NCBI RefSeq assembly: GCF_002854065.1
Contig: NZ_CP024147.1
DNA length: 64,000 bases
DNA from: Escherichia coli
GTDB lineage: Bacteria; Pseudomonadota; Gammaproteobacteria; Enterobacterales; Enterobacteriaceae
Strand: one strand, 5' to 3'
Shown here: positions 1-27,500 of the stretch, piece by piece
Numbering within the stretch: the stretch's first letter is position 1
How the letters are laid out: each line of letters begins with the position of its first letter
Translations under genes and position numbers: made by a program
The notes under the pieces: model-generated
The model's database searches: none
Told to the model about the DNA's origin: nothing
Seen by the model: only the letters and a program-made list of their open reading frames with translations

Positions 1-152
1 CTTTTTAGGGAGCAAGTAAGTCTAAGCAAACCTTAACAGCAGAGAATTCCGATATTAGATGTAAATATATGTCTATCTATTTGAAAACCCTTAAGTTGTT
101 AAGGGTAACTTTACATAAAAGTGTGAACAAGCTGGCACAAATTGTTTAATGT
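1..152 (-). promoter_or_regulatory. Intergenic region downstream of ogt, probably the upstream/promoter region of fnr (fnr itself lies beyond the window edge)
   Basis: Non-coding AT-rich sequence 3-prime of ogt; in the K-12 arrangement fnr follows ogt on the same strand. No specific binding site was confidently identified. Confidence 0.3.
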
Positions 153-668
153 TTACAGCAAAAGATAACCTTCGTGGCGCAATAACCACTCTTTTCGCTG
201 AACTCCGCCTGCATATCCGGTCATGGTGCCGTTTCGGCCAATAACCCGATGGCAAGGTACGACGATGCTGATGGGATTCGATCCGTTTGCCGCACCAACG
301 GCACGCGCCGCGCCAGGGCGGCCCAATTGTTCAGCCAGTTGGCCGTAATGCATTACCTGCCCGCAGGGAATGGTGCGTAGTGTTTTCCAGACTTCGCGCT
401 GAAATGGCGTCCCCCCTGTGGCAGTGGGAAGCGTATCAATAATGCTAAGATTACCGGCAAAATAATCACGAAGCTTGTCGCTTAAACCGCCTGGGTTGGT
501 GGCAGAAATGCGCTCATAGCCTTCTTTGCGATAATGGATGTCCAGAAGCTGCACCATGCGTTCGCTGTACTCTTCCCATTCAACCGCCCGCAGACGAAAT
601 TGCTCATCGCAAATCACCCACAGTGGACCCAGTGGCGTGGCAATTTTTTCTTCAAGTAATCTCAGCAT
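153..668 (-). CDS. ogt: O6-methylguanine-DNA methyltransferase
   Basis: 171-aa ORF with the PCHRV active-site cysteine motif; sequence recognised as Ogt. Confidence 0.92.
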
Positions 669-678
669 CCGTTCTCTC

Positions 679-747
679 TTAAGACAAACGTGGGTAAATC
701 CCCGGACCTATCGGCAGACCAACAAGATACCACGCCAGCAACATCAG
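679..747 (-). pseudogene. abgT: 3-prime remnant of abgT (aminobenzoyl-glutamate transporter) truncated by IS1
   Basis: Minus-strand reading ends ...[22 protein letters not shown]-stop a few bp upstream of the ogt start and runs directly into the IS1 end at 748; hydrophobic transporter-like C-terminus. Identity inferred from the K-12 neighbourhood. Confidence 0.55.
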
Positions 748-802
748 GGTGATGCTGCCAACTTACTGATTTAGTGTATGATGGTGTTTTTGAGGTGCTC
801 CA

Positions 803-1078
803 GTGGCTTCTGTTTCTATCAGCTGTCCCTCCTGTTCAGCTACTGACGGGGTGGTGCGTAACGGCAAAAGCACTGCCGGACATCAGCGCTATCTCTGCTC
901 TCACTGCCGTAAAACATGGCAACTGCAGTTCACTTACACCGCTTCTCAACCCGGTACGCACCAGAAAATCATTGATATGGCCATGAATGGCGTTGGATGC
1001 CGGGCAACCGCCCGCATTATGGGCGTTGGCCTCAACACGATTTTCCGCCATTTAAAAAACTCAGGCCGCAGTCGGTAA
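803..1078 (+). CDS. insA: IS1 InsA (transposition inhibitor / N-terminal part of transposase)
   Basis: 91-aa [43 protein letters not shown]..., recognised as InsA. Confidence 0.93.
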
Positions 1079-1500
1079 CCTCGCGCATACAGCCGGGCAG
1101 TGACGTCATCGTCTGCGCGGAAATGGACGAACAGTGGGGATACGTCGGGGCTAAATCGCGCCAGCGCTGGCTGTTTTACGCGTATGACAGGCTCCGGAAG
1201 ACGGTTGTTGCGCACGTATTCGGTGAACGCACTATGGCGACGCTGGGGCGTCTTATGAGCCTGCTGTCACCCTTTGACGTGGTGATATGGATGACGGATG
1301 GCTGGCCGCTGTATGAATCCCGCCTGAAGGGAAAGCTGCACGTAATCAGCAAGCGATATACGCAGCGAATTGAGCGGCATAACCTGAATCTGAGGCAGCA
1401 CCTGGCACGGCTGGGACGGAAGTCGCTGTCGTTCTCAAAATCGGTGGAGCTGCATGACAAAGTCATCGGGCATTATCTGAACATAAAACACTATCAATAA
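997..1500 (+). CDS. insB: IS1 InsB reading frame (expressed as InsAB' transposase by a -1 frameshift at A6C)
   Basis: 167-aa ORF in the -1 frame relative to insA, overlapping its 3-prime end; A6C slippery motif at 1054..1060. Confidence 0.9.
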
Positions 1501-1515
1501 GTTGGAGTCATTACC

Positions 1516-1656
1516 GGTTCGTAGCTGACTAAACGTGAGTTCTTGCATCAACAGTCGCGCCGCGCTATTGGCATAAATTAACTGTTCCTCAAAGGGCGAA
1601 ACGATCCAGACAGGACTGGTGAGTAAGTCCAGGGTATTGAAGTTGTGCGTAATCAT
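1516..1656 (-). pseudogene. dgcM: 5-prime remnant (47 codons) of diguanylate cyclase dgcM (ydaM) truncated by IS1
   Basis: Minus-strand reading MITHNFNTLDLLTSPVWIVSPFEEQLIYANSAARLLMQELTFSQLRT runs directly into the IS1 right end at 1515; divergent from zntB as in K-12. Identity is from memory of the DgcM N-terminus and gene context. Confidence 0.6.
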
Positions 1657-1889
1657 TGAGATCCCATTATTTTTATCAATTTTTGTTGCTATCCGATCGC
1701 AAAAAAGCCACATCATATGATCAGATAATTCTGATAATGATAGACGCTATTTAACACTTCACACGGTTTGTATACGGAAAAGCATTTTGCTTTTTGTATT
1801 CAATTTAGACAGAATTTTATTAATCATTTCAGGGTAATGGGGTGATGAGATGTTGCGTAACAGGGCCAGAAGGCTAGACTACAAAATAA

Positions 1890-4873: not shown

Positions 4874-5809
4874 TTATTTCACTTCAACCACATTCAGCCG
4901 TAACTCATCCAACTGATTTTCATCTTCTTCTGGCTGCCAGCCCGCCGGTTGTAGTGGGATCTCTTCGCGATCAAACGCCAGATCACCCCCGTTAACCACT
5001 TCAGAACCGTGGGTGATGCCTTTGAAATCGAACAGGTTGGTATCGCACAGATGCGACGGCACCACATTCTGCATCGCGCTGAACATCGTCTCGATACGCC
5101 CTGGATAACGTTTATCCCAGTCACGCAACATGTCAGCAATCACCTGACGTTGCAGGTTAGGCTGTGAACCGCACAGGTTGCACGGAATAATGGGGAACGC
5201 TTTTGCATCGGCAAATCGCTGAATATCTTTCTCGCGGCAGTAGGCCAGCGGACGAATAACGATATGTTTGCCATCATCGCTCATCAGTTTCGGAGGCATA
5301 CCTTTCATCTTGCCGCCGTAGAACATATTTAAGAACAGCGTCTGCAGGATATCGTCACGATGGTGACCCAGCGCGATCTTCGTCGCCCCCAGTTCCGTTG
5401 CGGTACGATAAAGAATACCGCGACGAAGGCGAGAACACAGTGAGCAAGTGGTTTTGCCCTCTGGAATCTTCTCTTTCACGATACCGTAAGTGTTCTCTTC
5501 AACAATCTTGTACTCAACGCCCAGCTTTTCAAGATACTCGGGCAGAACGTGCTCCGGGAAGCCCGGTTGCTTTTGATCGAGGTTAACAGCCACCAGCGAA
5601 AAATTGATTGGCGCGCTTTGCTGCAAATTGCGCAGAATCTCCAGCATGGTATAGCTGTCTTTACCCCCGGAGAGGCAAACCATGATGCGATCGCCTTCTT
5701 CAATCATATTGAAGTCAGCAATGGCTTCGCCCACGTTACGACGCAGGCGTTTTTGTAATTTGTTCAGGTTGTATTGTTCTTTCTTGCTAATTTCTTGATT
5801 TTGCGACAT
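4874..5809 (-). CDS. ttcA: tRNA 2-thiocytidine(32) synthetase TtcA
   Basis: 311-aa ORF with PP-loop SGGKDS and Cys-X-X-Cys motifs. Confidence 0.92.
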
Positions 5810-5951
5810 TTAAAAGCGACTCAATTCGTTATATGGCATCAGAAGAGTATGCGTCATGCCGGAACGCCCAGCATAAGAAATCTGATATAAAAACTGTGGC
5901 GTGTATGGTACGGATTAGAGAGGAAAATGTCAGCACATTTGCGAAATGAAT

Positions 5952-5977
5952 CAAAAAGCCCGCAGCAATGTGCGGGC
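5952..5977 (-). terminator. Rho-independent terminator downstream of uspF
   Basis: GCCCGCA/TGCGGGC hairpin followed by a U-run on the minus strand, just 3-prime of the uspF stop. Confidence 0.7.
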
Positions 5978-5984
5978 GTTAGTG

Positions 5985-6500
<516 letters not shown>

Positions 6501-6525
6501 TTAGATCAAAGGAGGAATAATAAGC

Positions 6526-6551
6526 AGAAAAAGCCCGCCATAACAGCGGGC
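6526..6551 (-). terminator. Rho-independent terminator downstream of ompN
   Basis: GCCCGC...GCGGGC hairpin followed by a U-run on the minus strand immediately after the ompN stop. Confidence 0.7.
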
Positions 6552-6559
6552 AGGAGGAT

Positions 6560-7693
6560 TTAGAACTGATAAACCAGACCTAAAGCGACAATATCATCGG
6601 TAGAGATGCCGTTGGCAGCGTAGAAACTGTCATCTTCATCCAACAGGTTGATTTTATAGTCAACATAAGTGGACATGTTTTTATTGAAATAGTAAGTCGC
6701 GCCAACATCGGCGTATTTAACCAGATCTTTATCATCAACACCTGCCGGGTTGTCTGCACCACCGGCAGCGTGCAGGTCACGGCCTTTAGACATCAGGAAA
6801 GAGACTGCCGGACGCAGACCAAAATCAAACTGGTACTGTGCAGTGACTTCAAAGTTCTGGGTTTTGTTCGCAACTGCATAATCGCTGTCGCCAAACGGGG
6901 TCATATTACGCGTTTCTGAATACATGGTTGCCAGGTAAATATTGTTAGCATCGTATTTTAGCCCAGCAGTCCACGCGTCTGCTTTATCACCACCCGCCGC
7001 AGTATGGTTAACCTGGTCATTGGTGCGGTCAGAAGAGGTGTATGCCGCACCAGCGCTAAAGCCCATGCCTAAATCATATGTTGTGGAAAGACCCCAGCCG
7101 TCACCGTTTTCATGGCGAACATCACGTCCGTTGTTGGTGCCTTCCTGACCATTACTGGCACCTTCGTTGTTACCTTGATACTGCACCGCGAAGTTCAGAC
7201 CATTTACCAGACCGAAGAAATCAGTATTACGATAAGTCGCGACGCCATTGGCACGACCAGTCATAAAGTTGTCTGCATTGGTATAAGAGTCACCGCCAAA
7301 TTCAGGCAGCATATCGGTCCAGCCTTCGATGTCGTACATTACGCCATAATTACGTCCGTAATCGAAAGAACCGTAATCTGCAAATTTCAGTCCGGCAAAT
7401 GCCAGACGGGTCCATGACTGGTTTTTTGAAGATTCAGTGTTGTTTGCCTGAATATTGTATTCCCATTGACCGTAGCCAGTAAGTTGATCGTTAATTTGGG
7501 TTTCGCCTTTAAAACCCAGACGCGCATAGCTCTGGTCGCCATCTTTCGCTGAATTATCAGAAAAATAATGCAGGCCATCAACTTTGCCATACAGATCTAA
7601 TTTGTTGCCGTCTTTATTATAAACTTCGGCTGCATGTGCAGCACCTGCGGCGATCAGGGCAGGAATTAAAAGTGCCAGTACTTTGCTTTTCAT
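6560..7693 (-). CDS. ompN: Outer membrane porin OmpN
   Basis: 377-aa ORF with signal peptide [21 protein letters not shown], porin beta-barrel features and C-terminal ...LVYQF. Confidence 0.9.
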
Positions 7694-16488: not shown

Positions 16489-16670
16489 AAATAGTGATAG
16501 CCGCGTTTGCGTCCTCTTTTATGTTGGTTGGTTGCACGCCTCGCATTGAAGTGGCTGCGCCGAAAGAGCCAATCACCATTAATATGAACGTTAAAATTGA
16601 GCATGAAATCATCATTAAAGCGGATAAGGACGTTGAAGACCTGCTCAAAACCCGTAGCGATCTATTTTGA
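16485..16670 (+). CDS. ynbE: Lipoprotein YnbE
   Basis: 61-aa ORF with lipobox MLVGC; 4-bp overlap (ATGA) with the ydbH stop. Confidence 0.85.
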   Translation: MKIVIAAFASSFMLVGCTPRIEVAAPKEPITINMNVKIEHEIIIKADKDVEDLLKTRSDLF

Positions 16671-16674
16671 GGTG

Positions 16675-17001
16675 ATGATGAAAAGAACATTACTCATAGC
16701 TGTATGGGCCATTGGCCTGATGAGCGACAGTGCAATGGCTTTAACCCTGAACGAAGCCAGAAGTCAGGGGCGGGTAGGTGAAACGCTTAACGGTTACCTG
16801 GTGGCGCTACAAACGGATGCCGAAACACAGGCATTAGTAAAAGATATTAATGAAGCTCGTAACCATAGTTATCAACAACTGGCAAAGCAAAATAATGTAT
16901 CCACTAAAGAGATAGCCAAACTGGCTGGACAAAAGCTTGTTGCTCGCGCGAAGTCGGGGCAATATGTTCAGGGAATTAATGGTAAATGGTTGCGCAAATA
17001 A
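16675..17001 (+). CDS. ydbL: Periplasmic protein YdbL (DUF1318)
   Basis: 108 aa from MMKRTLLIAVWAIGLMSDSAMA (signal peptide); start 5 bp after the ynbE stop. Confidence 0.82.
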   Translation: MMKRTLLIAVWAIGLMSDSAMALTLNEARSQGRVGETLNGYLVALQTDAETQALVKDINEARNHSYQQLAKQNNVSTKEIAKLAGQKLVARAKSGQYVQGINGKWLRK

Positions 17002-17408
17002 ATTATAGTTGGCTACAAAATGTATCTATTAATGATCTTTTACAGTATTTAAACTGACGTTAGCATGCTTAATTACCGTGGGTATTTCTACAAAAACCTT
17101 ATATATCCTTCCCTTAAATAACAAATCATTACCAATATATATGTAATCACAAAATATATATGCAGCGTCAATGAATTATTAGTGTGTTTTTGTTTTTTGT
17201 CGTTAATTTTTAGATTGAAGTGAGTTTTTTGTGGAATATAATTCCATCAACTGTTTTTTTGTATGCTTTTACTTGCCTGATTTTAATATTGATTTTGTGA
17301 ATTATATAAGCATTTCTTTATTGCTTATTTCACTATGAATATTTACTACGATTTATCTTCAAATTCTGCATGGCTTGTTACGCACGGTCTAGATCTAAGG
17401 AATTTTAT

Positions 17409-20400
17409 ATGCAAAGGAAAAAATTATTGTCTGTTTGTGTTGCCATGGCGTTAAGTAGCCAGACATGGGCTGCGGATACTTCAATACCCGACTCAACCGA
17501 AAAAACACGTAAGTCCAGTAAGATAACATGTCCGGCAAATATTCATTCCCTGAGCAAAGAGCAGCTAGAAAATTTATCCGCGGAGTGCAGAGAAAATAAA
17601 GATAGTGCAGTTTTACCATGGGCAGCTGCAGGTCTTGCTGCAGTAGCTACGGGAATTGCTATATATACCTTAAGTGACGATGACAATCACCACCATAATA
17701 ACTCCCCAGTTCCGGATGATGGCGGTGATACGCCAGTTCCGCCAGACGACGGCGGTGATACGCCGGTTCCGCCAGATGACGGCGGTGATACGCCGGTTCC
17801 GCCAGATGACGGCGGTGATACGCCAGTTCCGCCAGATGACGGCGGTGATACGCCAGTTCCGCCAGATGACGGCGATGATACGCCGGTTCCGCCAGATGAC
17901 GGCGGTGATACGCCAGTTCCGCCAGATGACGGCGGTGATACGCCAGTTCCGCCAGATGACGGCGGTGATACGCCGGTTCCACCAGATGATGGCGGTGATA
18001 CGCCAGTTCCAGACGACGGCGGTGATACGCCTGTTCCGCCAGACGATGGTGGCGATACCCCGGTTAAACACGATCCTGTCGTCTATAAAAATGACGTAAC
18101 CTGGGATCAGGACGCGAAAACCGTCAAAATTCGCGAAACCACCTTTACCTACAGCCAAAATGCCGATGGGAGTTACACCTTAACCGCGCCTGATGGCCTG
18201 ACGACGATAGTCAAGGGCTGGACAGTCCATGACGACAGCAACACCGTCATCTTTGATGGCGTAAATACGGCAGGTGGCATCACCTGGAGCTACGACGATG
18301 ATGGGCTCATCCATATCACTAAAGAGGCCGGTGTCGTTGTTGATGGCACAACCGGAACTGCGATTGATTTTGGTAATGCGATCATCACCGATCAGGGCGG
18401 CAATACGGCGCTGAATGGCGGTACTGTCATGACGGTTGAGGGTGACAACATCACCCTCAACAACGACGGTAAAACGACCGCCATCGGCGAGGGTTCGGTC
18501 GTTGGTATCCTTACTGGTGACGATATCACTATCAATAACAACGGCGAGACGGAAGTTGACGGCGGTACCGCAGTAATCATCAATGGCGATAATGCTACGC
18601 TGAACACTGCGGGCGACTCGACCATCACCAATGGTGGTACGGGTAGCCTTATCAATGGCGATAATGCGCGGGTCGATAATCAAGGTACCATGAGCGTTGA
18701 CGGTGAGAATTCCACTGGCTCGAAAATTGTCGGTGACGGTGCCACCATCAAACAGGAAGGCGACTTATACGTAAGCGGTGGTGCGCACGGTATTGACGTT
18801 GACGGCAATGATACGTTCGTTAGCAACAAAGGTAATATTACGGTCATCGAAGATAACTCTATTGGCATGCTGCTTGATGGTGATGGCGTCAGCGTGATCA
18901 ACATGGGCGACCTCAATGTTGGTCAGGCCGCAGCGGGTGAAAATGCCATTGGCATTCAGATCGACGGTGATAATGCGACATTTGTTAACGTTGGTGATAT
19001 TTCCGCGACCAATGCCGGAACCGGTGTCAGCGTTGCTGGGGATAAAGCTAATATTTCACTCGCGGGTGGGTTAGACGTTGGGGATTTCTCCACCGGTCTT
19101 GATGTCTCTGGCAATAATAACAACATGACGCTGGCGACTTATGAGCTGAATGTGACAGGGCAAAAAGCGACGGGTGTTAATGTTTCGGGTGATGGCAATA
19201 CGATTGAAATCGCAGGCAGCATTCTGGTTGATAAAGATCAGAAAGCCGATAATGCGCAACCTTACTTCTTTAATCCCTCAACCGGCGTAAATATCAGCGG
19301 TAATAACAATGACGTCACGCTGGATGGTCAGTTAACCGTTGTTGCTGATAGCGAAACCACTACGCGTTCCTATGCAAGTTACGACGGTGCTCAGGAGCAC
19401 ATTGCGGGTATTGTTATTGCTGGCGATGACAATACCTTCACGCTTAATGGCGGTGTCCATTTTGTCGGTGAAAAAAATGTCATGGATGATGGCTCAAAAC
19501 CTGCCGCATCTCGTCGTGGTATCGGAGATACACCGCTTATGAGCGTTGATGGGCATTCCTCAGTCTACCTCAATGGTGAGTCAACCATCAGCGGTGAGTT
19601 CCCGCTGGGTTTCGAAAATCTCATTCAACTGAGTAATGGCGCGGAGCTGGAGATTGGCGCTGACGCAACGTTTGATATGAGTGATGTGGATTCTTTCACT
19701 TATTATTATCGTGTAGCGTTATCCACTATTAGTATTGATTATGGTGCGAAGGCGACAAACAACGGTGAAGTGGAACTGAAAAATATCGGTTTTGCGGCTG
19801 CCTGGAATAAAGATTCAACGGTAATCAATAACGGATCCATTGGCCTGGCGATGTACGATTTTGGTACCGACCCGGCACCAAAAGTCTTTGACGTTGAATA
19901 CGGTGGGATTGGCGTTAACAATGGTACCATGACCACCAAAATGATGAATCAGCACAGTGTGCTGAATTATCCGGCAGAGTGGAACTTGTCTGATGGTACC
20001 TCTTTCAATAACAAGGCATTAGGGCTGACAGGTATGCTTGCCAGCTACTCGTCATCCATTCTGAACGGCGAAACGGGCATTATTGATATGTATGGCCGTG
20101 GCAGTGTAGGGATGCTAGCCATCGATAAATCAACCGCGGATAACGAAGGGCAAATCACCCTGGATACGCTGTGGGTTGATGAAAATGATGAAACATCGCT
20201 GCGTAATAATGTTGCAAATAGCACGGCGAAAGATTTCGGTGTGGGAATGGCTTCAGGTACCGATGCCTATAATGGGGCATTAACTAAAGCCACGGCAACC
20301 AACCACGAGAATGGTGTGATTACTGTCTACAACGCCGGTGCGGGGATGGCGGCGTATGGGAATACTAATACGGTCATTAACCAGGGAACCATCAACCTGG

Positions 20401-23273
20401 AGAAAAATGAAAATTACAACGATTCTCTCGGTGTGAATAAACTCGTCGGCATGGCGGTTTATCACGAAGGCACCGCCATTAATGACCAGACAGGCGTAAT
20501 CAACATTAACGCGGAAAATGGTCAGGCATTCTATAACGATGGCACTGGGCTTATTATCAACTATGGCACAATTTGTACCTTTGGCGTTTGCCAGGGGGCC
20601 GATGAATATAATCCAACGGATAATTATATTGCCGATTTATATGATCATGGCGATGTATTAAGTTCTGCGGGTGAGACCGTATTATTATCGTCAGGTGCGA
20701 TTATCAACGGGGATGTCACCAGTGCGGGTGCTGTTAAAAATGGAACGATCAGGATACTCGAAAATGGTGCGCTGGTTAACGAGTCGAGCGGAACCATTAG
20801 CTCAGCCATCGTCGTGAATGAAGGCGGTGCGTTAACCAATGAAGGTGTATTGAACACGGTGACTCTGGAAGGAGGAACCTTCAATAACAACGGAACGCTT
20901 AATGACGTCGTAAAAATTGAGAAAAACAGCAACGCGGTAATTAATAACACCGGTTCCCTGTCAACTTTACAACTTCACGATGGTACGGTGAATAACAGCG
21001 GTATTGCGTCGGCGCGCGTTAACGCTCAGGGCGATGCGGTATTCAATAACCTTGCAGGCGGCGAGGCGCGTAAAGGCGCGATTCTCTATAACTCTGCGGT
21101 AGTGAATAACGCGGGTACCTGGAAAATGGGTTATCAGGATGAAAACAACAATGCCGGGACGCTGGATATTGACGATAAGTCAACGTTCAACAACAGCGGC
21201 AAACTCATCCTTGATAACAGCAAAAACGCCATTCGCTTCCAGGGCAGCAATGCTAACGCCACGTTATATAACACCGGTGAAATGACGCTGGATGCCGCAT
21301 TAGGTGCGGGCGCTATTCACTACGACGATGGCGCCAGCCAGTTTATTAACAAGGGCGTGGTGGATGCGAAAGTCACCGTGGCGGTAAGTACTGCCGGTGC
21401 GACAGAAAGCGATGCCTTCTTGTGGAACCAGGATGGCGGGGTAATTAACTTCGATAAAGACAACGCCAGCGCGGTTAAATTCACCCACAACAACTATGTT
21501 GCTCTCAACGATGGTGTAATGAACATCAGCGGCAACAACGCCGTGGCGATGGAAGGCGATAAAAACGCACAGCTGGTTAACAACGGTGTTATCAATCTCG
21601 GTACCGAAGGCACCACCGATACCGGATTGACTGGTATGCAACTGGATGCCAATGCCACCGCCGATGCGGTAATTGAGAACAACGGCACGATCAATATTTT
21701 TGCTAACGACTCGTTTGCGTTCAGCGTACTGGGCACAGAAGGTCATATCGTTAACAACGGTACGGTGGTGATTGCCGACGGCGTGACTGGTTCGGGGTTG
21801 ATTAAGCAGGGCGACAGCGTGAATGTGGAAGGGGTGAACGGCAACAGCGGTAACAATACCGAAGTGCATTACACCGACTACACGTTGCCGGACATGCCAA
21901 GCTCTTACACCACTTCACCTTTCAGTGAAACGACTGATAGCGGTAGTAGCGATGGCAGCAGTAACAATCTTAACGGCTATATCGTCGGTACCAACGTTGA
22001 TGGCAGCGCCGGTAAACTGAAGGTCAACAACGCCAGCATGAATGGTGTCGGGATCAACACCGGTTTCGCCGCCGGTACGGCAGACACCACGGTCAGTTTC
22101 GACAACGTGGTGGAAGGCATCAACCTGACCGACGCCGATGCCATCACCTCAACGTCCGTGGTATGGACCGCCAAAGGCAGCACCGATGCCAGCGGCAACG
22201 TTGACGTCATCATGAGCAAAAACGCCTACACCGATGTGGCGACCGATGCTTCGGTGAACGATGTGGCGAAGGTACTGGATGCGGGTTACACCAATAACGA
22301 GCTGTATACCAGCCTGAACGTGGGCACCACTGCTGAACTGAATAGCGCCCTGAAGCAGGTGAGCGGTAGCCAGGCGACCACGGTATTCCGTGAAGCGCGT
22401 GTGTTAAGCAACCGCTTCAGCATGCTGGCGGATGCCGCGCCGAAGGTGGGTAACGGTCTGGCGTTCAACGTTGTTGCGAAAGGCGATCCACGTGCCGAGT
22501 TAGGTAATAATACCGAATACGACATGCTGGCATTGCGTAAAACCATCGACCTGAGCGAAAGCCAGACGATGAGTCTGGAGTACGGTATCGCTCGTCTCGA
22601 TGGTGATGGTGCGCAGAAAGCGGGTGGTAATGGCGTCACAGGTGGTTATAGCCAGTTCTTTGGCCTGAAACATCAGATGTCCTTCGACAACGGCATGAAC
22701 TGGAATAACGCATTGCGTTATGACGTTCACAACCTTGACAGTAGCCGTTCGATTGCATTTAGCAACACAAACAAAACGGCTGATACCGACGTGAAGCAGC
22801 AGTACCTGGAGTTCCGCAGCGAAGGGGCGAAGACTTTCGAACCGAGCGAAGGACTGAAGGTTACGCCATATGCGGGTGTAAAACTGCGTCACTCGCTGGA
22901 AGGCGGCTATCAGGAGCGCAATGCCGGAGACTTTAACCTGAGCATGAACAGCGGCAGCGAAACGGCGGTGGACAGCATCGTCGGGCTGAAACTGGACTAC
23001 GCAGGGAAAGGCGGCTGGAGCGCGAATGCGACGCTGGAAGGCGGGCCGAACCTGAGCTACAGCAAGAGCCAGCGCACGGCAAGCCTTGCAGGGGCAGGCA
23101 GCCAGCACTTTAACGTCGATGACGGTCAGAAGGGCGGCGGTATCAACAGCCTGGCGAGCGTCGGCGTGAAGTACAGTAGCAAAGAAAGTTCGCTGAATCT
23201 GGATGCGTATCACTGGAAAGAGGACGGCATCAGCGACAAAGGCGTGATGCTGAACTTTAAGAAAACGTTCTAA
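17409..23273 (+). CDS. ydbA: Autotransporter (type Va) adhesin-like protein YdbA, apparently intact
   Basis: About 1954 aa: signal peptide MQRKKLLSVCVAMALSSQTWA, PPDDGGDTPV tandem repeats, long Gly/Asn/Thr-rich beta-helix passenger, C-terminal beta-barrel ending ...MLNFKKTF. Confidence 0.85.
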   Translation: MQRKKLLSVCVAMALSSQTWAADTSIPDSTEKTRKSSKITCPANIHSLSKEQLENLSAECRENKDSAVLPWAAAGLAAVATGIAIYTLSDDDNHHHNNSPVPDDGGDTPVPPDDGGDTPVPPDDGGDTPVPPDDGGDTPVPPDDGGDTPVPPDDGDDTPVPPDDGGDTPVPPDDGGDTPVPPDDGGDTPVPPDDGGDTPVPDDGGDTPVPPDDGGDTPVKHDPVVYKNDVTWDQDAKTVKIRETTFTYSQNADGSYTLTAPDGLTTIVKGWTVHDDSNTVIFDGVNTAGGITWSYDDDGLIHITKEAGVVVDGTTGTAIDFGNAIITDQGGNTALNGGTVMTVEGDNITLNNDGKTTAIGEGSVVGILTGDDITINNNGETEVDGGTAVIINGDNATLNTAGDSTITNGGTGSLINGDNARVDNQGTMSVDGENSTGSKIVGDGATIKQEGDLYVSGGAHGIDVDGNDTFVSNKGNITVIEDNSIGMLLDGDGVSVINMGDLNVGQAAAGENAIGIQIDGDNATFVNVGDISATNAGTGVSVAGDKANISLAGGLDVGDFSTGLDVSGNNNNMTLATYELNVTGQKATGVNVSGDGNTIEIAGSILVDKDQKADNAQPYFFNPSTGVNISGNNNDVTLDGQLTVVADSETTTRSYASYDGAQEHIAGIVIAGDDNTFTLNGGVHFVGEKNVMDDGSKPAASRRGIGDTPLMSVDGHSSVYLNGESTISGEFPLGFENLIQLSNGAELEIGADATFDMSDVDSFTYYYRVALSTISIDYGAKATNNGEVELKNIGFAAAWNKDSTVINNGSIGLAMYDFGTDPAPKVFDVEYGGIGVNNGTMTTKMMNQHSVLNYPAEWNLSDGTSFNNKALGLTGMLASYSSSILNGETGIIDMYGRGSVGMLAIDKSTADNEGQITLDTLWVDENDETSLRNNVANSTAKDFGVGMASGTDAYNGALTKATATNHENGVITVYNAGAGMAAYGNTNTVINQGTINLEKNENYNDSLGVNKLVGMAVYHEGTAINDQTGVININAENGQAFYNDGTGLIINYGTICTFGVCQGADEYNPTDNYIADLYDHGDVLSSAGETVLLSSGAIINGDVTSAGAVKNGTIRILENGALVNESSGTISSAIVVNEGGALTNEGVLNTVTLEGGTFNNNGTLNDVVKIEKNSNAVINNTGSLSTLQLHDGTVNNSGIASARVNAQGDAVFNNLAGGEARKGAILYNSAVVNNAGTWKMGYQDENNNAGTLDIDDKSTFNNSGKLILDNSKNAIRFQGSNANATLYNTGEMTLDAALGAGAIHYDDGASQFINKGVVDAKVTVAVSTAGATESDAFLWNQDGGVINFDKDNASAVKFTHNNYVALNDGVMNISGNNAVAMEGDKNAQLVNNGVINLGTEGTTDTGLTGMQLDANATADAVIENNGTINIFANDSFAFSVLGTEGHIVNNGTVVIADGVTGSGLIKQGDSVNVEGVNGNSGNNTEVHYTDYTLPDMPSSYTTSPFSETTDSGSSDGSSNNLNGYIVGTNVDGSAGKLKVNNASMNGVGINTGFAAGTADTTVSFDNVVEGINLTDADAITSTSVVWTAKGSTDASGNVDVIMSKNAYTDVATDASVNDVAKVLDAGYTNNELYTSLNVGTTAELNSALKQVSGSQATTVFREARVLSNRFSMLADAAPKVGNGLAFNVVAKGDPRAELGNNTEYDMLALRKTIDLSESQTMSLEYGIARLDGDGAQKAGGNGVTGGYSQFFGLKHQMSFDNGMNWNNALRYDVHNLDSSRSIAFSNTNKTADTDVKQQYLEFRSEGAKTFEPSEGLKVTPYAGVKLRHSLEGGYQERNAGDFNLSMNSGSETAVDSIVGLKLDYAGKGGWSANATLEGGPNLSYSKSQRTASLAGAGSQHFNVDDGQKGGGINSLASVGVKYSSKESSLNLDAYHWKEDGISDKGVMLNFKKTF
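17706..18064 (+). repeat. About 12 tandem copies of a 30-bp repeat (one 27-bp unit) encoding PPDDGGDTPV within ydbA
   Basis: Near-identical head-to-tail units GATGACGGCGGTGATACGCCAGTTCCGCCA with occasional wobble changes; one unit encodes GDDTPV. The mirror-image ORFs in the track here are repeat artefacts. Confidence 0.9.
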
Positions 23274-23294
23274 TTTTTAGCATGTGATACACAA

Positions 23295-23326
23295 ACCGCA
23301 ACGCTGATACAGGTTGCGGTTTTTTA
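23295..23326 (+). terminator. Rho-independent terminator downstream of ydbA
   Basis: ACCGCAAC...GTTGCGGT hairpin followed by TTTTT; a partial REP-like GCCGGATGCGACGC follows. Confidence 0.8.
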
Positions 23327-23492
23327 TTGCCGGATGCGACGCTTGACTTATCTTTTGCTGTCTAATGTTTTGGTGTCTTTCAGGACAATAGTGCTACTCA
23401 TCCAGAAATCTTGTTTACGCCTTCGCATTATTTATCTCTTTTCGTTTCTATACTGATTTTTCTTAATCCGTTTTATTACAGGGCAGGGTGCG

Positions 23493-24353
23493 ATGAGCAG
23501 CAATACATTTACTCTCGGTACAAAATCCGTTAACCGTCTTGGTTATGGCGCGATGCAACTGGCAGGTCCTGGGGTTTTTGGCCCCCCAAGAGATCGCCAC
23601 GTCGCTATAACTGTGCTGCGCGAGGCGCTGGCATTGGGCGTCAATCACATTGATACCAGCGACTTTTATGGTCCGCACGTCACCAATCAGATTATCCGCG
23701 AAGCGCTTTATCCTTACTCTGACGACCTGACAATTGTCACTAAAATTGGTGCGCGGCGTGGAGAGGACGCTTCCTGGTTGCCCGCCTTTTCTCCGGCAGA
23801 GCTGCAAAAAGCGGTACACGATAATCTACGTAATCTCGGCCTGGACGTACTGGATGTGGTTAACCTGCGCGTGATGATGGGGGATGGTCATGGCCCGGCG
23901 GAAGGATCGATTGAAGCCAGCCTGACCGTGCTGGCAGAGATGCAACAACAAGGCCTGGTAAAACATATTGGCCTAAGCAACGTCACACCGACGCAGGTTG
24001 CAGAGGCGCGCAAGATTGCCGAAATCGTCTGTGTGCAGAACGAATACAACATTGCTCATCGTGCTGATGACGCAATGATTGAAGCTTTGGCTCGTGACGG
24101 CATTGCCTACGTGCCGTTCTTTCCGCTCGGGGGCTTTACGCCGCTGCAATCTTCCACGCTTTCCGATGTTGCTGCGAGCTTGGGTGCAACACCAATGCAG
24201 GTGGCGCTGGCGTGGCTGTTACAACGTTCACCGAATATTTTGCTGATCCCAGGGACGTCTTCTGTTGCGCATTTACGGGAGAATATGGCTGCTGAAAAAT
24301 TGCATCTTTCTGAGGAAGTGTTGTCTACGTTGGATGGTATTTCGCGAGAATAA
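23493..24353 (+). CDS. pdxI: Aldo-keto reductase, pyridoxine 4-dehydrogenase PdxI (YdbC)
   Basis: 286-aa ORF with AKR-family motifs (IDTSDFYG, GLSNV). Confidence 0.88.
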   Translation: MSSNTFTLGTKSVNRLGYGAMQLAGPGVFGPPRDRHVAITVLREALALGVNHIDTSDFYGPHVTNQIIREALYPYSDDLTIVTKIGARRGEDASWLPAFSPAELQKAVHDNLRNLGLDVLDVVNLRVMMGDGHGPAEGSIEASLTVLAEMQQQGLVKHIGLSNVTPTQVAEARKIAEIVCVQNEYNIAHRADDAMIEALARDGIAYVPFFPLGGFTPLQSSTLSDVAASLGATPMQVALAWLLQRSPNILLIPGTSSVAHLRENMAAEKLHLSEEVLSTLDGISRE

Positions 24354-24362
24354 CGAATATAC

Positions 24363-24399
24363 AAAAGGGAAAGATGCATTTCCCTTTTGTTTCTTTTTT
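24363..24399 (+). terminator. Rho-independent terminator downstream of pdxI
   Basis: AAAAGGGAAA...TTCCCTTTT hairpin followed by a T-rich run. Confidence 0.75.
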
Positions 24400-24416
24400 A
24401 ATGGCATGGAGTGCAT

Positions 24417-25715
24417 ATGTTTAAGCCCAGGATTTGCAGCTGGATAGGTTTACTTCCCCTGTTTATGCTGAGTCTTCCAGTACAGGCGGAACTTCGATGC
24501 GTTGCAAATGCAGTTGATATTGAACCTTTTTTTTCTGCGGCTACCGCTGAAGATAAACAACAAGTTGAACAAGCTATCAACAGTAGCGTGAATCTTGTCC
24601 CCTTCGGTTTATCTGCATCGGACTGGAAAGTGCATCGTGGCGATTTAGTGGTAGAAGGTAATATAGAGAGTAATCAAAAATTGATTGTTCTTGGCAATTT
24701 GACAGTCAAAGGTAATATTTCCACTTTCTCTCTTTCTAATCCATGGGTTATTCTCGGTAACGTGACGGCAACGAATATAGTTACGGATTCACCACTGTTA
24801 ATTACCGGTTCGATAAATGCAAGTGGACTGGTATTTATCGACTCATATTACGATAATCCGTCTACGATTAAGGGGAGTATTAATGCGCGCGGGATATTTA
24901 TCAATGACATAATTGCACCTGTTGTTGCGTCTTCGACAAATAGTGAATTCATGGTCCGTGCGAGTGACAAAAATGACACTGAAAATGTCAAAAAAGCGCT
25001 GATGATAATAAATCCTGATGCATATTATTGGGGTCTAATAAATGATGAAGATGCTCTGAAAGAAATTTTTAAGCGAAGCAATATTCGCATGGCAGGGAAT
25101 GTCTGTAATCAGATGAAAAAAGAAGCGCTGTTTCGCCCTAAGCCTTCTCCTGAGTTAGTGCAGGAATTGCAAATGCTGGATGAAGGCAACGTTGCTGCAT
25201 TTGAAGGACGAGATATTGCGACATTTGATCTTGCCATAATGCGAACTCTCCCAAGGCTTAAAGGAATTTCAGCTAACCTACGCAAACAACTTATTAATAG
25301 CAATGATGGACAAACGATTGCAAGTATGGCGAGATATATGCCTGACAATGAGATTCTGGAGTTGACCGATCAGCAATTGGGTTACCAGCCTGTTGTTCTG
25401 GGGTTGCTCGACCGTGAACCGCTCTCTGTCGAAATAATGACGCGAATGAGTCATCTACCTGATGGTGTCGGTCCGTTGAATCTTGCGCTACGTGAAAATC
25501 TCCCTCTGGATATCGTCATGACTCTGGCGAAAAGAGATTGGGATATGATCATTCAGGAGCTTTATAAAGATGCGTGGTTATTGCCCGAATCCATTATTGA
25601 TGGCTATATCCGCAGTGATGATTCCTCTATTCGTCAGGTCGGTGCTGGAGGACAACTCACCTACAATCAGGCAATGCAGTTGGCGAACGATTCATCAAAC
25701 GATGTTGTCACAAGC
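24417..25715 (+). pseudogene. ydbD: ydbD N-terminal fragment (disrupted by IS1)
   Basis: Signal-peptide ORF MFKPRICSWIGLLPLFMLSLPVQA... runs into IS1 at 25716 and stops 27 nt inside it; the two halves total about 770 codons, matching the K-12 YdbD length as I recall it. Confidence 0.8.
25707..25715. repeat. Left 9-bp target-site duplication GTCACAAGC of IS1 copy 2
   Basis: Identical 9-mer immediately flanks both ends of the IS1 (25707..25715 and 26484..26492). Confidence 0.9.
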
Positions 25716-25770
25716 GGTGATGCTGCCAACTTACTGATTTAGTGTATGATGGTGTTTTTGAGGTGCTCCA

Positions 25771-26046
25771 GTGGCTTCTGTTTCTATCAGCTGTCCCTCC
25801 TGTTCAGCTACTGACGGGGTGGTGCGTAACGGCAAAAGCACTGCCGGACATCAGCGCTATCTCTGCTCTCACTGCCGTAAAACATGGCAACTGCAGTTCA
25901 CTTACACCGCTTCTCAACCCGGTACGCACCAGAAAATCATTGATATGGCCATGAATGGCGTTGGATGCCGGGCAACCGCCCGCATTATGGGCGTTGGCCT
26001 CAACACGATTTTCCGCCATTTAAAAAACTCAGGCCGCAGTCGGTAA
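25771..26046 (+). CDS. insA: IS1 InsA
   Basis: 91-aa ORF identical to insA of copy 1. Confidence 0.93.
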
Positions 26047-26468
26047 CCTCGCGCATACAGCCGGGCAGTGACGTCATCGTCTGCGCGGAAATGGACGAAC
26101 AGTGGGGATACGTCGGGGCTAAATCGCGCCAGCGCTGGCTGTTTTACGCGTATGACAGTCTCCGGAAGACGGTTGTTGCGCACGTATTCGGTGAACGCAC
26201 TATGGCGACGCTGGGGCGTCTTATGAGCCTGCTGTCACCCTTTGACGTGGTGATATGGATGACGGATGGCTGGCCGCTGTATGAATCCCGCCTGAAGGGA
26301 AAGCTGCACGTAATCAGCAAGCGATATACGCAGCGAATTGAGCGGCATAACCTGAATCTGAGGCAGCACCTGGCACGGCTGGGACGGAAGTCGCTGTCGT
26401 TCTCAAAATCGGTGGAGCTGCATGACAAAGTCATCGGGCATTATCTGAACATAAAACACTATCAATAA
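25965..26468 (+). CDS. insB: IS1 InsB reading frame (InsAB' by -1 frameshift)
   Basis: 167-aa ORF; differs from copy 1 by one residue (S vs R). Confidence 0.9.
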
Positions 26469-26483
26469 GTTGGAGTCATTACC

Positions 26484-26492
26484 GTCACAAGC
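26484..26492. repeat. Right 9-bp target-site duplication GTCACAAGC of IS1 copy 2
   Basis: Direct repeat of 25707..25715. Confidence 0.9.
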
Positions 26493-27500
26493 TTAGCGTT
26501 AAAGCTGGCAGAGATGAAACACCATGGTCAATTGTTGCGGATGACGCCACAAGAGAGTGACAAAATAGCAGTATATTTATACCAAAAATTCGAGAATGAC
26601 GATGATCTAATAGGTGCGTTATTTTTAGCGTTGCCAGATAACTTACAGTTTAATTTTGTTAAAAGGATGGAGAAAAAATCCCCTGCCTACTTTTGCTGTC
26701 GGGATATGCAGATAATTCACTCTGACGCTGCTTTACAACGGTTATTGACACGTTTCAACGATCCTGAGGGGTGGAGTAATCTGGCGAAAAATCAGTATCT
26801 GAGCACGTCGATGAAACAAAAAATTTGGCAACGTGCTTTATCGCATCGGAAAAATAATCCCAAAGCAGATTCAGATGCATATGAAACCAGCGCTGATATG
26901 ATTTTGTCTGAGCTTATCAGCTACGGTGAAGTTGATGACCAGATGCTATTAAATGCCACCTCTCTGATACGTTCGGACGACTGGGACTTTTTAGAGAGAG
27001 CATTAATTAGTTGGGATAATTTACCCGCTGTTGTTCTCAAGGAATTACAGCAAAACACGCCACGCAATGATATTTGGGCGAAGTTTTTTCTGAGGCAGGA
27101 AAACAGTTCCCGTGCGCAGGTTAACGAAGCGTTACGTGTTTATTATGCACTAGACCCCGATGCGTTAGCACAACTGGATGTACTGGCAAAACAACCGGAT
27201 CGTATATGGTGGAGTACACTGGCGAAAAGCAATCTCACATTTTTCAAGTTCGGCGCACTTAACAACCGCCACACACCGCCTGCGGTACTGGCGGCAGAAA
27301 TTGATCCCGAGTGGTGGATTGTGGCGATGAATAATCCCCGTTTTCCAGTTGATGTATTAAAGGCGAGGCTGAAACGTGATCCTTTGCTGGCGTTAGAGCT
27401 TGTTAACCCTGAACTGGATTTAGTTCGCCAGCTGGCGCTTAACGGTAAGACGCGCGCAATACGGGAACAAGCGATGAGAAAACTTGATGAGTTGTATTGA
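26484..27500 (+). pseudogene. ydbD: ydbD C-terminal fragment (disrupted by IS1)
   Basis: Open frame continues from the duplicated target site to the stop at 27500 (ORF track shows it from an internal Met at 26514). Confidence 0.8.

Follow-up and report, generated by a model that had tools for sequence, protein, structure and literature searches.

Within the 64,000-nucleotide stretch of Escherichia coli DNA analysed here (contig NZ_CP024147.1 of assembly GCF_002854065.1; hereafter the window), the gene order around ydbD is the conventional one, bigA(ydbA)-pdxI-ydbD-ynbABCD, with ydbD (b1407) placed between pdxI (ydbC) and ynbA. The bigA/ydbA gene is intact here as a 1,967-codon ORF (17370..23273), and about 0.9 kb (16489..17369) separates it from the ydbH/ynbE/ydbL genes. 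In K-12, ydbA is presumably IS-disrupted, and we take the feaRB-tynA-paa cluster of that strain to lie between ydbL and ydbA; the cluster is absent between ydbL and bigA in the window. The interval between pdxI and ydbD contains a terminator-like hairpin on the + strand, with a 12-bp stem and a T-run (24361..24390). Only 26 nt remain between its end and the ydbD start codon, so that a promoter dedicated to ydbD would have very little space.

The ydbD gene itself is present in two parts, both on the + strand: a 5' fragment comprising codons 1-433 (24417..25715), which includes a signal-peptide-like N-terminus and a weak bactofilin-like region, and a 3' fragment comprising codons 434-768 and the stop (26493..27500), which contains the DUF2773 domain. 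Between them lies a full-length, IS1B-like IS1 of 768 bp (25716..26483, + strand), whose insA and insB genes run in that order and codirectionally with ydbD. The original prediction called this element copy 2. That label is correct because a second IS1, in the same orientation and with one base different, is found at 748..1515.

Copy 2 begins with GGTGATGCTGCC and ends with GGAGTCATTACC. Its left 23-bp terminal inverted repeat (IRL, GGTGATGCTGCCAACTTACTGAT; 25716..25738, + strand) matches the right one (IRR, GGTAATGACTCCAACTTATTGAT; 26461..26483, - strand) at 18 of 23 positions, an imperfect pair, and the right end of the element reads as the reverse complement of GGTAATGACTCCAACTTATTGAT. Two partly overlapping ORFs occupy the interior. 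The first, insA (25771..26046, + strand), encodes 91 aa with a zinc ribbon and an HTH, as labelled by Pfam on the same ORF in draft contigs; the second, the insB' frame (25965..26468, + strand), is a 167-aa ORF with a TAA stop at 26466-26468. When compared with the NCBIfam IS1 transposase profile (NF033558), InsA aligns to profile positions 1-81, and InsB' to positions 76-199 with a score of 141.9 bits, which passes the cut-off of 100. The -1 programmed frameshift motif AAAAAAC (A6C; 26022..26028, + strand) is intact and is predicted to yield the InsAB' transposase; RefSeq annotates a 'programmed frameshift' on the near-identical IS1 copy of the wastewater strain CUWW06, discussed below. Inside the element, a consensus promoter scan picked out one promoter-like site (25723-25750), ahead of insA and overlapping IRL; overall, such sites were no more numerous than in shuffled sequence.

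Comparison with the isoforms of K-12 MG1655 places copy 2 closest to IS1B and IS1C (NC_000913.3 279163-279930 and 290634-291401). These lie at other loci and are identical to copy 2 at 766 of 768 positions, sharing its 768-bp length, both terminal repeats, insA, insB' and the A6C motif; the two differences are a T at IS positions 444 and 704 of copy 2, in each case the IS1A state. The K-12 IS1A (NC_000913.3 19796-20563) has the same length, ends and gene layout, but differs at seven nucleotides (761/768; positions 127, 262, 298, 301, 304, 393 and 396). With two differences from IS1B against seven from IS1A, copy 2 is therefore of the IS1B type. The T at IS position 444 (26159..26159, + strand) puts Ser in place of Arg at codon 65 of the InsB' ORF and is private to copy 2: the base is G in window copy 1, in the copy found at the same site in an NCTC strain (see below), in CUWW06 and in K-12 IS1B, and T in K-12 IS1A. 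This substitution is probably harmless, because Ser is the IS1A residue. Every IS1-defining feature readable from the nucleotides is present in copy 2, namely its ends, the layout of its genes, the frameshift motif and near-identity to known isoforms.

On either side of the element stands the identical 9-mer GTCACAAGC, at 25707..25715, where it spans ydbD codons 431-433 (V-T-S), and at 26484..26492. The positions originally given for copy 2 and for both 9-mers proved exact to the base. Identity between the flanks is limited to exactly 9 bp, since one position beyond the 9-mer the left flank has T and the right flank C, and GTCACAAGC has no third occurrence on either strand of the window. The chance of a match at all nine positions between two fixed flanks is 4^-9, or 3.8e-6.

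In silico removal of the 777 bp at 25716..26492, a length divisible by 3, brings 24417..25715 and 26493..27500 together and restores ydbD as an uninterrupted ORF of 768 codons plus stop, from the ATG at 24417 to the stop at 27498-27500. The frame is continuous and encodes full-length YdbD, in agreement with the expectation of a single gene of about 770 codons, and no break in the frame that would have spoken against a split gene was seen. The restored 2,307-nt gene, used as a query, gives a one-piece, end-to-end match to annotated ydbD. It differs from the ydbD of strain JNEC-KY204, which lacks the insertion, by one synonymous nucleotide in 2307, and the restored protein is identical at 768 of 768 residues to WP_021577410.1 (gene ydbD, 'DUF2773 domain-containing bactofilin'). 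The empty site in JNEC-KY204 reads ...gatgttGTCACAAGCttagcg... and holds a single GTCACAAGC, and 3,833 complete genomes with ydbD in one place are colinear with the flanks. The 9-bp duplication, together with this single-copy empty site, bears out the earlier view of the flanking repeats as the footprint of a direct transposition. The boundaries predicted for the two gene pieces, 24417..25715 and 26484..27500, also hold, with one qualification: the piece beginning at 26484 opens with the duplicated codons 431-433, and the unique 3' part of the gene is 26493..27500.

The restored protein has one confident domain, the Pfam family DUF2773 (PF10971), at residues 688-768 (E = 2.3e-45, full model coverage). 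A bactofilin match (PF04519) at residues 78-141 is sub-threshold (E = 0.048), and the 'bactofilin' label attached to YdbD originates in RefSeq naming; NCBIfam contains no YdbD model. The N-terminus comprises MFKPR, a 16-residue hydrophobic core (mean Kyte-Doolittle 1.8) and VQA/E, and looks like a putative Sec-type signal peptide.

The consequences of the insertion for the coding sequence can be read at both junctions. On the left, the upstream ORF runs into the IS as GGT GAT GCT GCC AAC TTA CTG ATT TAG; it ends at the ninth codon of the IS (25740-25742), just where the N-terminal product had been predicted to terminate, and the product is 441 aa long, comprising 433 YdbD residues and eight that are IS-encoded (GDAANLLI). 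On the right, the insB' TAA (26466-26468) is in frame with downstream ydbD, which makes an InsB-YdbD fusion impossible. The first possible start in the 3' part is ATG 26514, which opens a 328-aa ORF without a signal peptide. This ATG lies 15 codons past the insB' stop (26466..26516), and translational re-initiation there, giving a 328-aa cytoplasmic fragment, is conceivable. The right end of the IS1 showed neither an outward nor a hybrid promoter in a consensus scan, with the proviso that weak expression of the 328-aa ORF could escape such a scan. Since the insertion falls after codon 433, the export signal and the N-terminal region are no longer joined to the C-terminal 335 residues, and the 3' 335 codons, DUF2773 included, are separated from the promoter, the start codon and the signal peptide. 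These features suggest that ydbD is a functionally null allele in this strain.

It could be argued that ydbD was already dead when the IS1 arrived, and that the insertion is not the inactivating lesion. The gene is evidently dispensable: 1,436 of the 5,426 complete E. coli genomes have no megablast match to ydbD, which makes it accessory at the species level, and other strains have IS1 copies inside it. The restored allele, however, contains no frameshift or stop and encodes a protein identical to the intact YdbD of other lineages, so that no prior decay is visible; the ydbD ATG is intact and its 5' flank conserved. We regard earlier inactivation as very improbable.

To place the insertion among other strains, junction sequences and predicted products were compared with public assemblies. 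None of the 5,426 complete RefSeq E. coli genomes contains both junctions in one piece, and an exact scan for the 44-nt left junction returned 0 matches among GTDB species-representative genomes, which means that the strain carrying the window is not one of these representatives. Both junctions are present base for base in an NCTC long-read contig (UGBN01000001.1, 4.74 Mb; GCA_900449015.1), and this assembly and drafts such as E. coli 1-250-04_S3_C1/C2 share with the window identical junctions, the 9-bp duplication and the 441-aa and 328-aa products. The exact 441-aa fusion is deposited in GenBank as KEO35079.1 (E. coli 1-250-04_S3_C2). It recurs in 69 blocks of the assembly collection, on 35 contigs, always with insA 29 nt later, and the 328-aa downstream ORF is found on 66 contigs with the IS1 end upstream at the same spacing. 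Moreover, the ydbD/IRL or IRR/ydbD boundary is crossed at the same bases by a metagenome scaffold and by dozens of contigs from short-read assemblies.

The NCTC copy is not identical to the window throughout. Whereas the window has T at IS position 444, the NCTC element has G; its ydbD 5' fragment has gained one T (TTGTT to TTGTTT at about 1880 of the UGBN01000001.1 piece), which reflects either secondary frameshift and decay or a long-read sequencing error; and a further IS1, missing from the window, interrupts ynbB (5064-6620 of the same piece).

These records bear on whether the insertion is real, since a misplaced IS1 repeat within ydbD could in principle be an assembly artefact: IS1 is multicopy and a frequent cause of misassembly, and the absence of both junctions from the complete RefSeq genomes would fit such an error. 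Against this, the NCTC assembly is independent and its junctions are identical, the right junction is common to CUWW06, and the short-read contigs and the metagenome scaffold show the ydbD/IS1 junctions at the same bases. Because the same junctions or fusion are carried by the NCTC contig, by drafts and by a metagenome, the insertion is not an artefact of assembly, and we attach practically no weight to that explanation.

Apart from ydbD, about 40 kb of the window align at 99.98% identity with CUWW06 (NZ_CP182139.1), a strain from Thai wastewater and the only close relative of the window among the 5,426 complete RefSeq E. coli genomes; every other complete genome is at most about 98.9% identical, the best non-clonal E. 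coli reaching about 98.8-98.9%. Given that near-identity is limited to CUWW06 among complete genomes, the insertion marks one clonal lineage of E. coli that has been sparsely sampled. An affiliation with Shigella was suspected from the 98.8-98.9% non-clonal identity and was rejected: the exact products are recorded under E. coli names, and the remainder of the window is intact core genome with two IS1 copies only. The literature yielded no paper that pairs ydbD with IS1, and none on CUWW06 or isolate 1-250-04.

CUWW06 shares with the window the same IS1, the right junction and the 1017-bp ydbD 3' remnant, but has a different left side. Its IRL adjoins window position 17317, and the 8,398 bp corresponding to window 17318..25715 are gone, with no target duplication. 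The deletion starts exactly at the left end of the IS1 (breakpoint 25125/25126 in the CUWW06 piece) and removes bigA/ydbA, pdxI and the 5' part of ydbD. An adjacent deletion without target duplication is the form classically described for IS1-promoted deletions. As CUWW06 keeps the right junction and has lost the left side, the window represents the ancestral simple insertion and CUWW06 a later, IS1-bounded deletion derived from it. Two origins are equally compatible with this deletion: intramolecular transposition from IRL, or recombination with another IS1 copy that is no longer present. Judged from this orthologous copy, the IS1 at ydbD is probably still capable of further rearrangement.

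The other IS1 of the window, copy 1, stands between CAACATCAG and GGTTCGTAG and so lacks a target duplication. To its left (1..747) lie ogt and a short 3' remnant of abgT, and to its right (1516..1774) a 5' remnant of dgcM; most of abgT, the genes between abgT and dgcM, and most of dgcM are missing. In K-12, these intervening genes are presumably abgB, abgA, abgR and smrA. At the corresponding site CUWW06 has the same IS1 with 245 bp more on the left and without the 259 bp on the right, which suggests that successive IS1-adjacent deletions occurred at copy 1 after the window strain and CUWW06 split.

Rearrangements are thus known in this lineage, both at copy 1 and beside the very IS1 under study in CUWW06, and it might be proposed that copy 2 likewise marks a rearrangement junction, whether by IS1-IS1 recombination, adjacent deletion or inversion, or as the end of a composite transposon. 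Any such event would part the flanks and abolish the duplication, whereas the flanks of copy 2 are adjacent ydbD sequence with a perfect 9-bp duplication, and excision restores an allele that is intact elsewhere. The continuous ORF obtained by excision, together with the single GTCACAAGC at the empty site, refutes this proposal, and its residual probability is negligible.

A single, intact IS1B-type IS1 almost certainly transposed directly into codons 431-433 of an intact ydbD in an ancestor of this lineage, and no sequence was found that contradicts a simple insertion. From the established biology of IS1, a -1 frameshift at A6C would have produced the InsAB' transposase, which would bind both 23-bp terminal repeats and link the ends of the element to target DNA cut with a 9-bp stagger. 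Filling in of the resulting gaps would then duplicate the 9 bp (GTCACAAGC). With ydbD split in this way, the insertion may since have been carried as a clonal marker that is neutral or nearly so. The route of insertion could have been either cut-and-paste or a resolved cointegrate.

The gene has been struck by IS1 on other occasions. Fourteen complete genomes that cover the full query have an IS1 elsewhere in or beside ydbD, within about 1.2 kb of the site described here, and three of them were inspected. All three have an IS1 inside the gene and in its orientation: in RM9088 at about nt 495, in EC2001 at about nt 1146 and in MLI023K1 at about nt 633, as against nt 1299 in the window. In MLI023K1 the insertion is accompanied by an IS1-bounded deletion that reaches ydbL; together with CUWW06, this makes two independent IS1-bounded deletions extending from ydbD towards ydbL. 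PGAP annotates two ydbD pseudogene pieces in RM9088, EC2001 and MLI023K1 and names the IS1 copies as IS1A family.

IS1 prefers AT-rich targets, and the A+T content of ydbD is 57%, compared with 50% for the window. The simplest reading of the recurrence is that it reflects this AT-rich target preference combined with weak selection on ydbD. An alternative is that the insertion was selected, either because loss of YdbD, possibly along with the neighbouring surface protein BigA, was advantageous in this lineage, or because the secreted 441-aa fragment retains a function or has acquired one. Three other independent hits in the same gene and two independent deletions in the same direction would accord with selection, as would the persistence of the interrupted allele in many isolates and the open frame of the 5' fragment in the window. 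Recurrence is, however, what the AT-rich preference leads one to expect; the additional T in the NCTC 5' fragment, whether decay or sequencing error, is a further point on this side; and relaxed selection on a protein expressed at below 1 ppm gives the same outcome (PMC5053530). In a K-12 transposon screen, moreover, ydbD was scored as mildly important for fitness, which suggests that its mutants are slightly less fit rather than fitter (PMC5053530). Selection for the insertion therefore seems unlikely. A broader form of the idea, in which ydbD-pdxI-bigA is a recurrent target of selected IS1-driven loss and certain gut-adapted, IS1-rich E. coli lineages convergently shed an envelope or surface module, strikes us as distinctly unlikely; if it were true, the process would have begun with the insertion seen in the window and continued with the deletion seen in CUWW06.

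Direct insertion of a single IS1 into an intact gene, the reading preferred here, is an ordinary event of an already known kind: textbook and routinely annotated, and present as the same insertion in several public genomes of the lineage, with PGAP annotating equivalent alleles as an IS1 transposase and two ydbD pseudogene pieces. None of these findings would surprise a specialist. YdbD is described in the literature only as an uncharacterised, methylglyoxal-induced protein, increased 3.9-fold in a data set on over-expression of sigma-E (PMC2731931), and the inactivation of a gene so weakly expressed and responsive to envelope stress and methylglyoxal has little import beyond bookkeeping (PMC2731931, PMC5053530). 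The allele is useful as a clonal marker, for a lineage comprising the NCTC UGBN01 strain, the 1-250-04 isolates and the ancestor of CUWW06. Overall, the window and CUWW06 form a natural before-and-after pair, in which an IS1 disrupts a locus and then erodes it.
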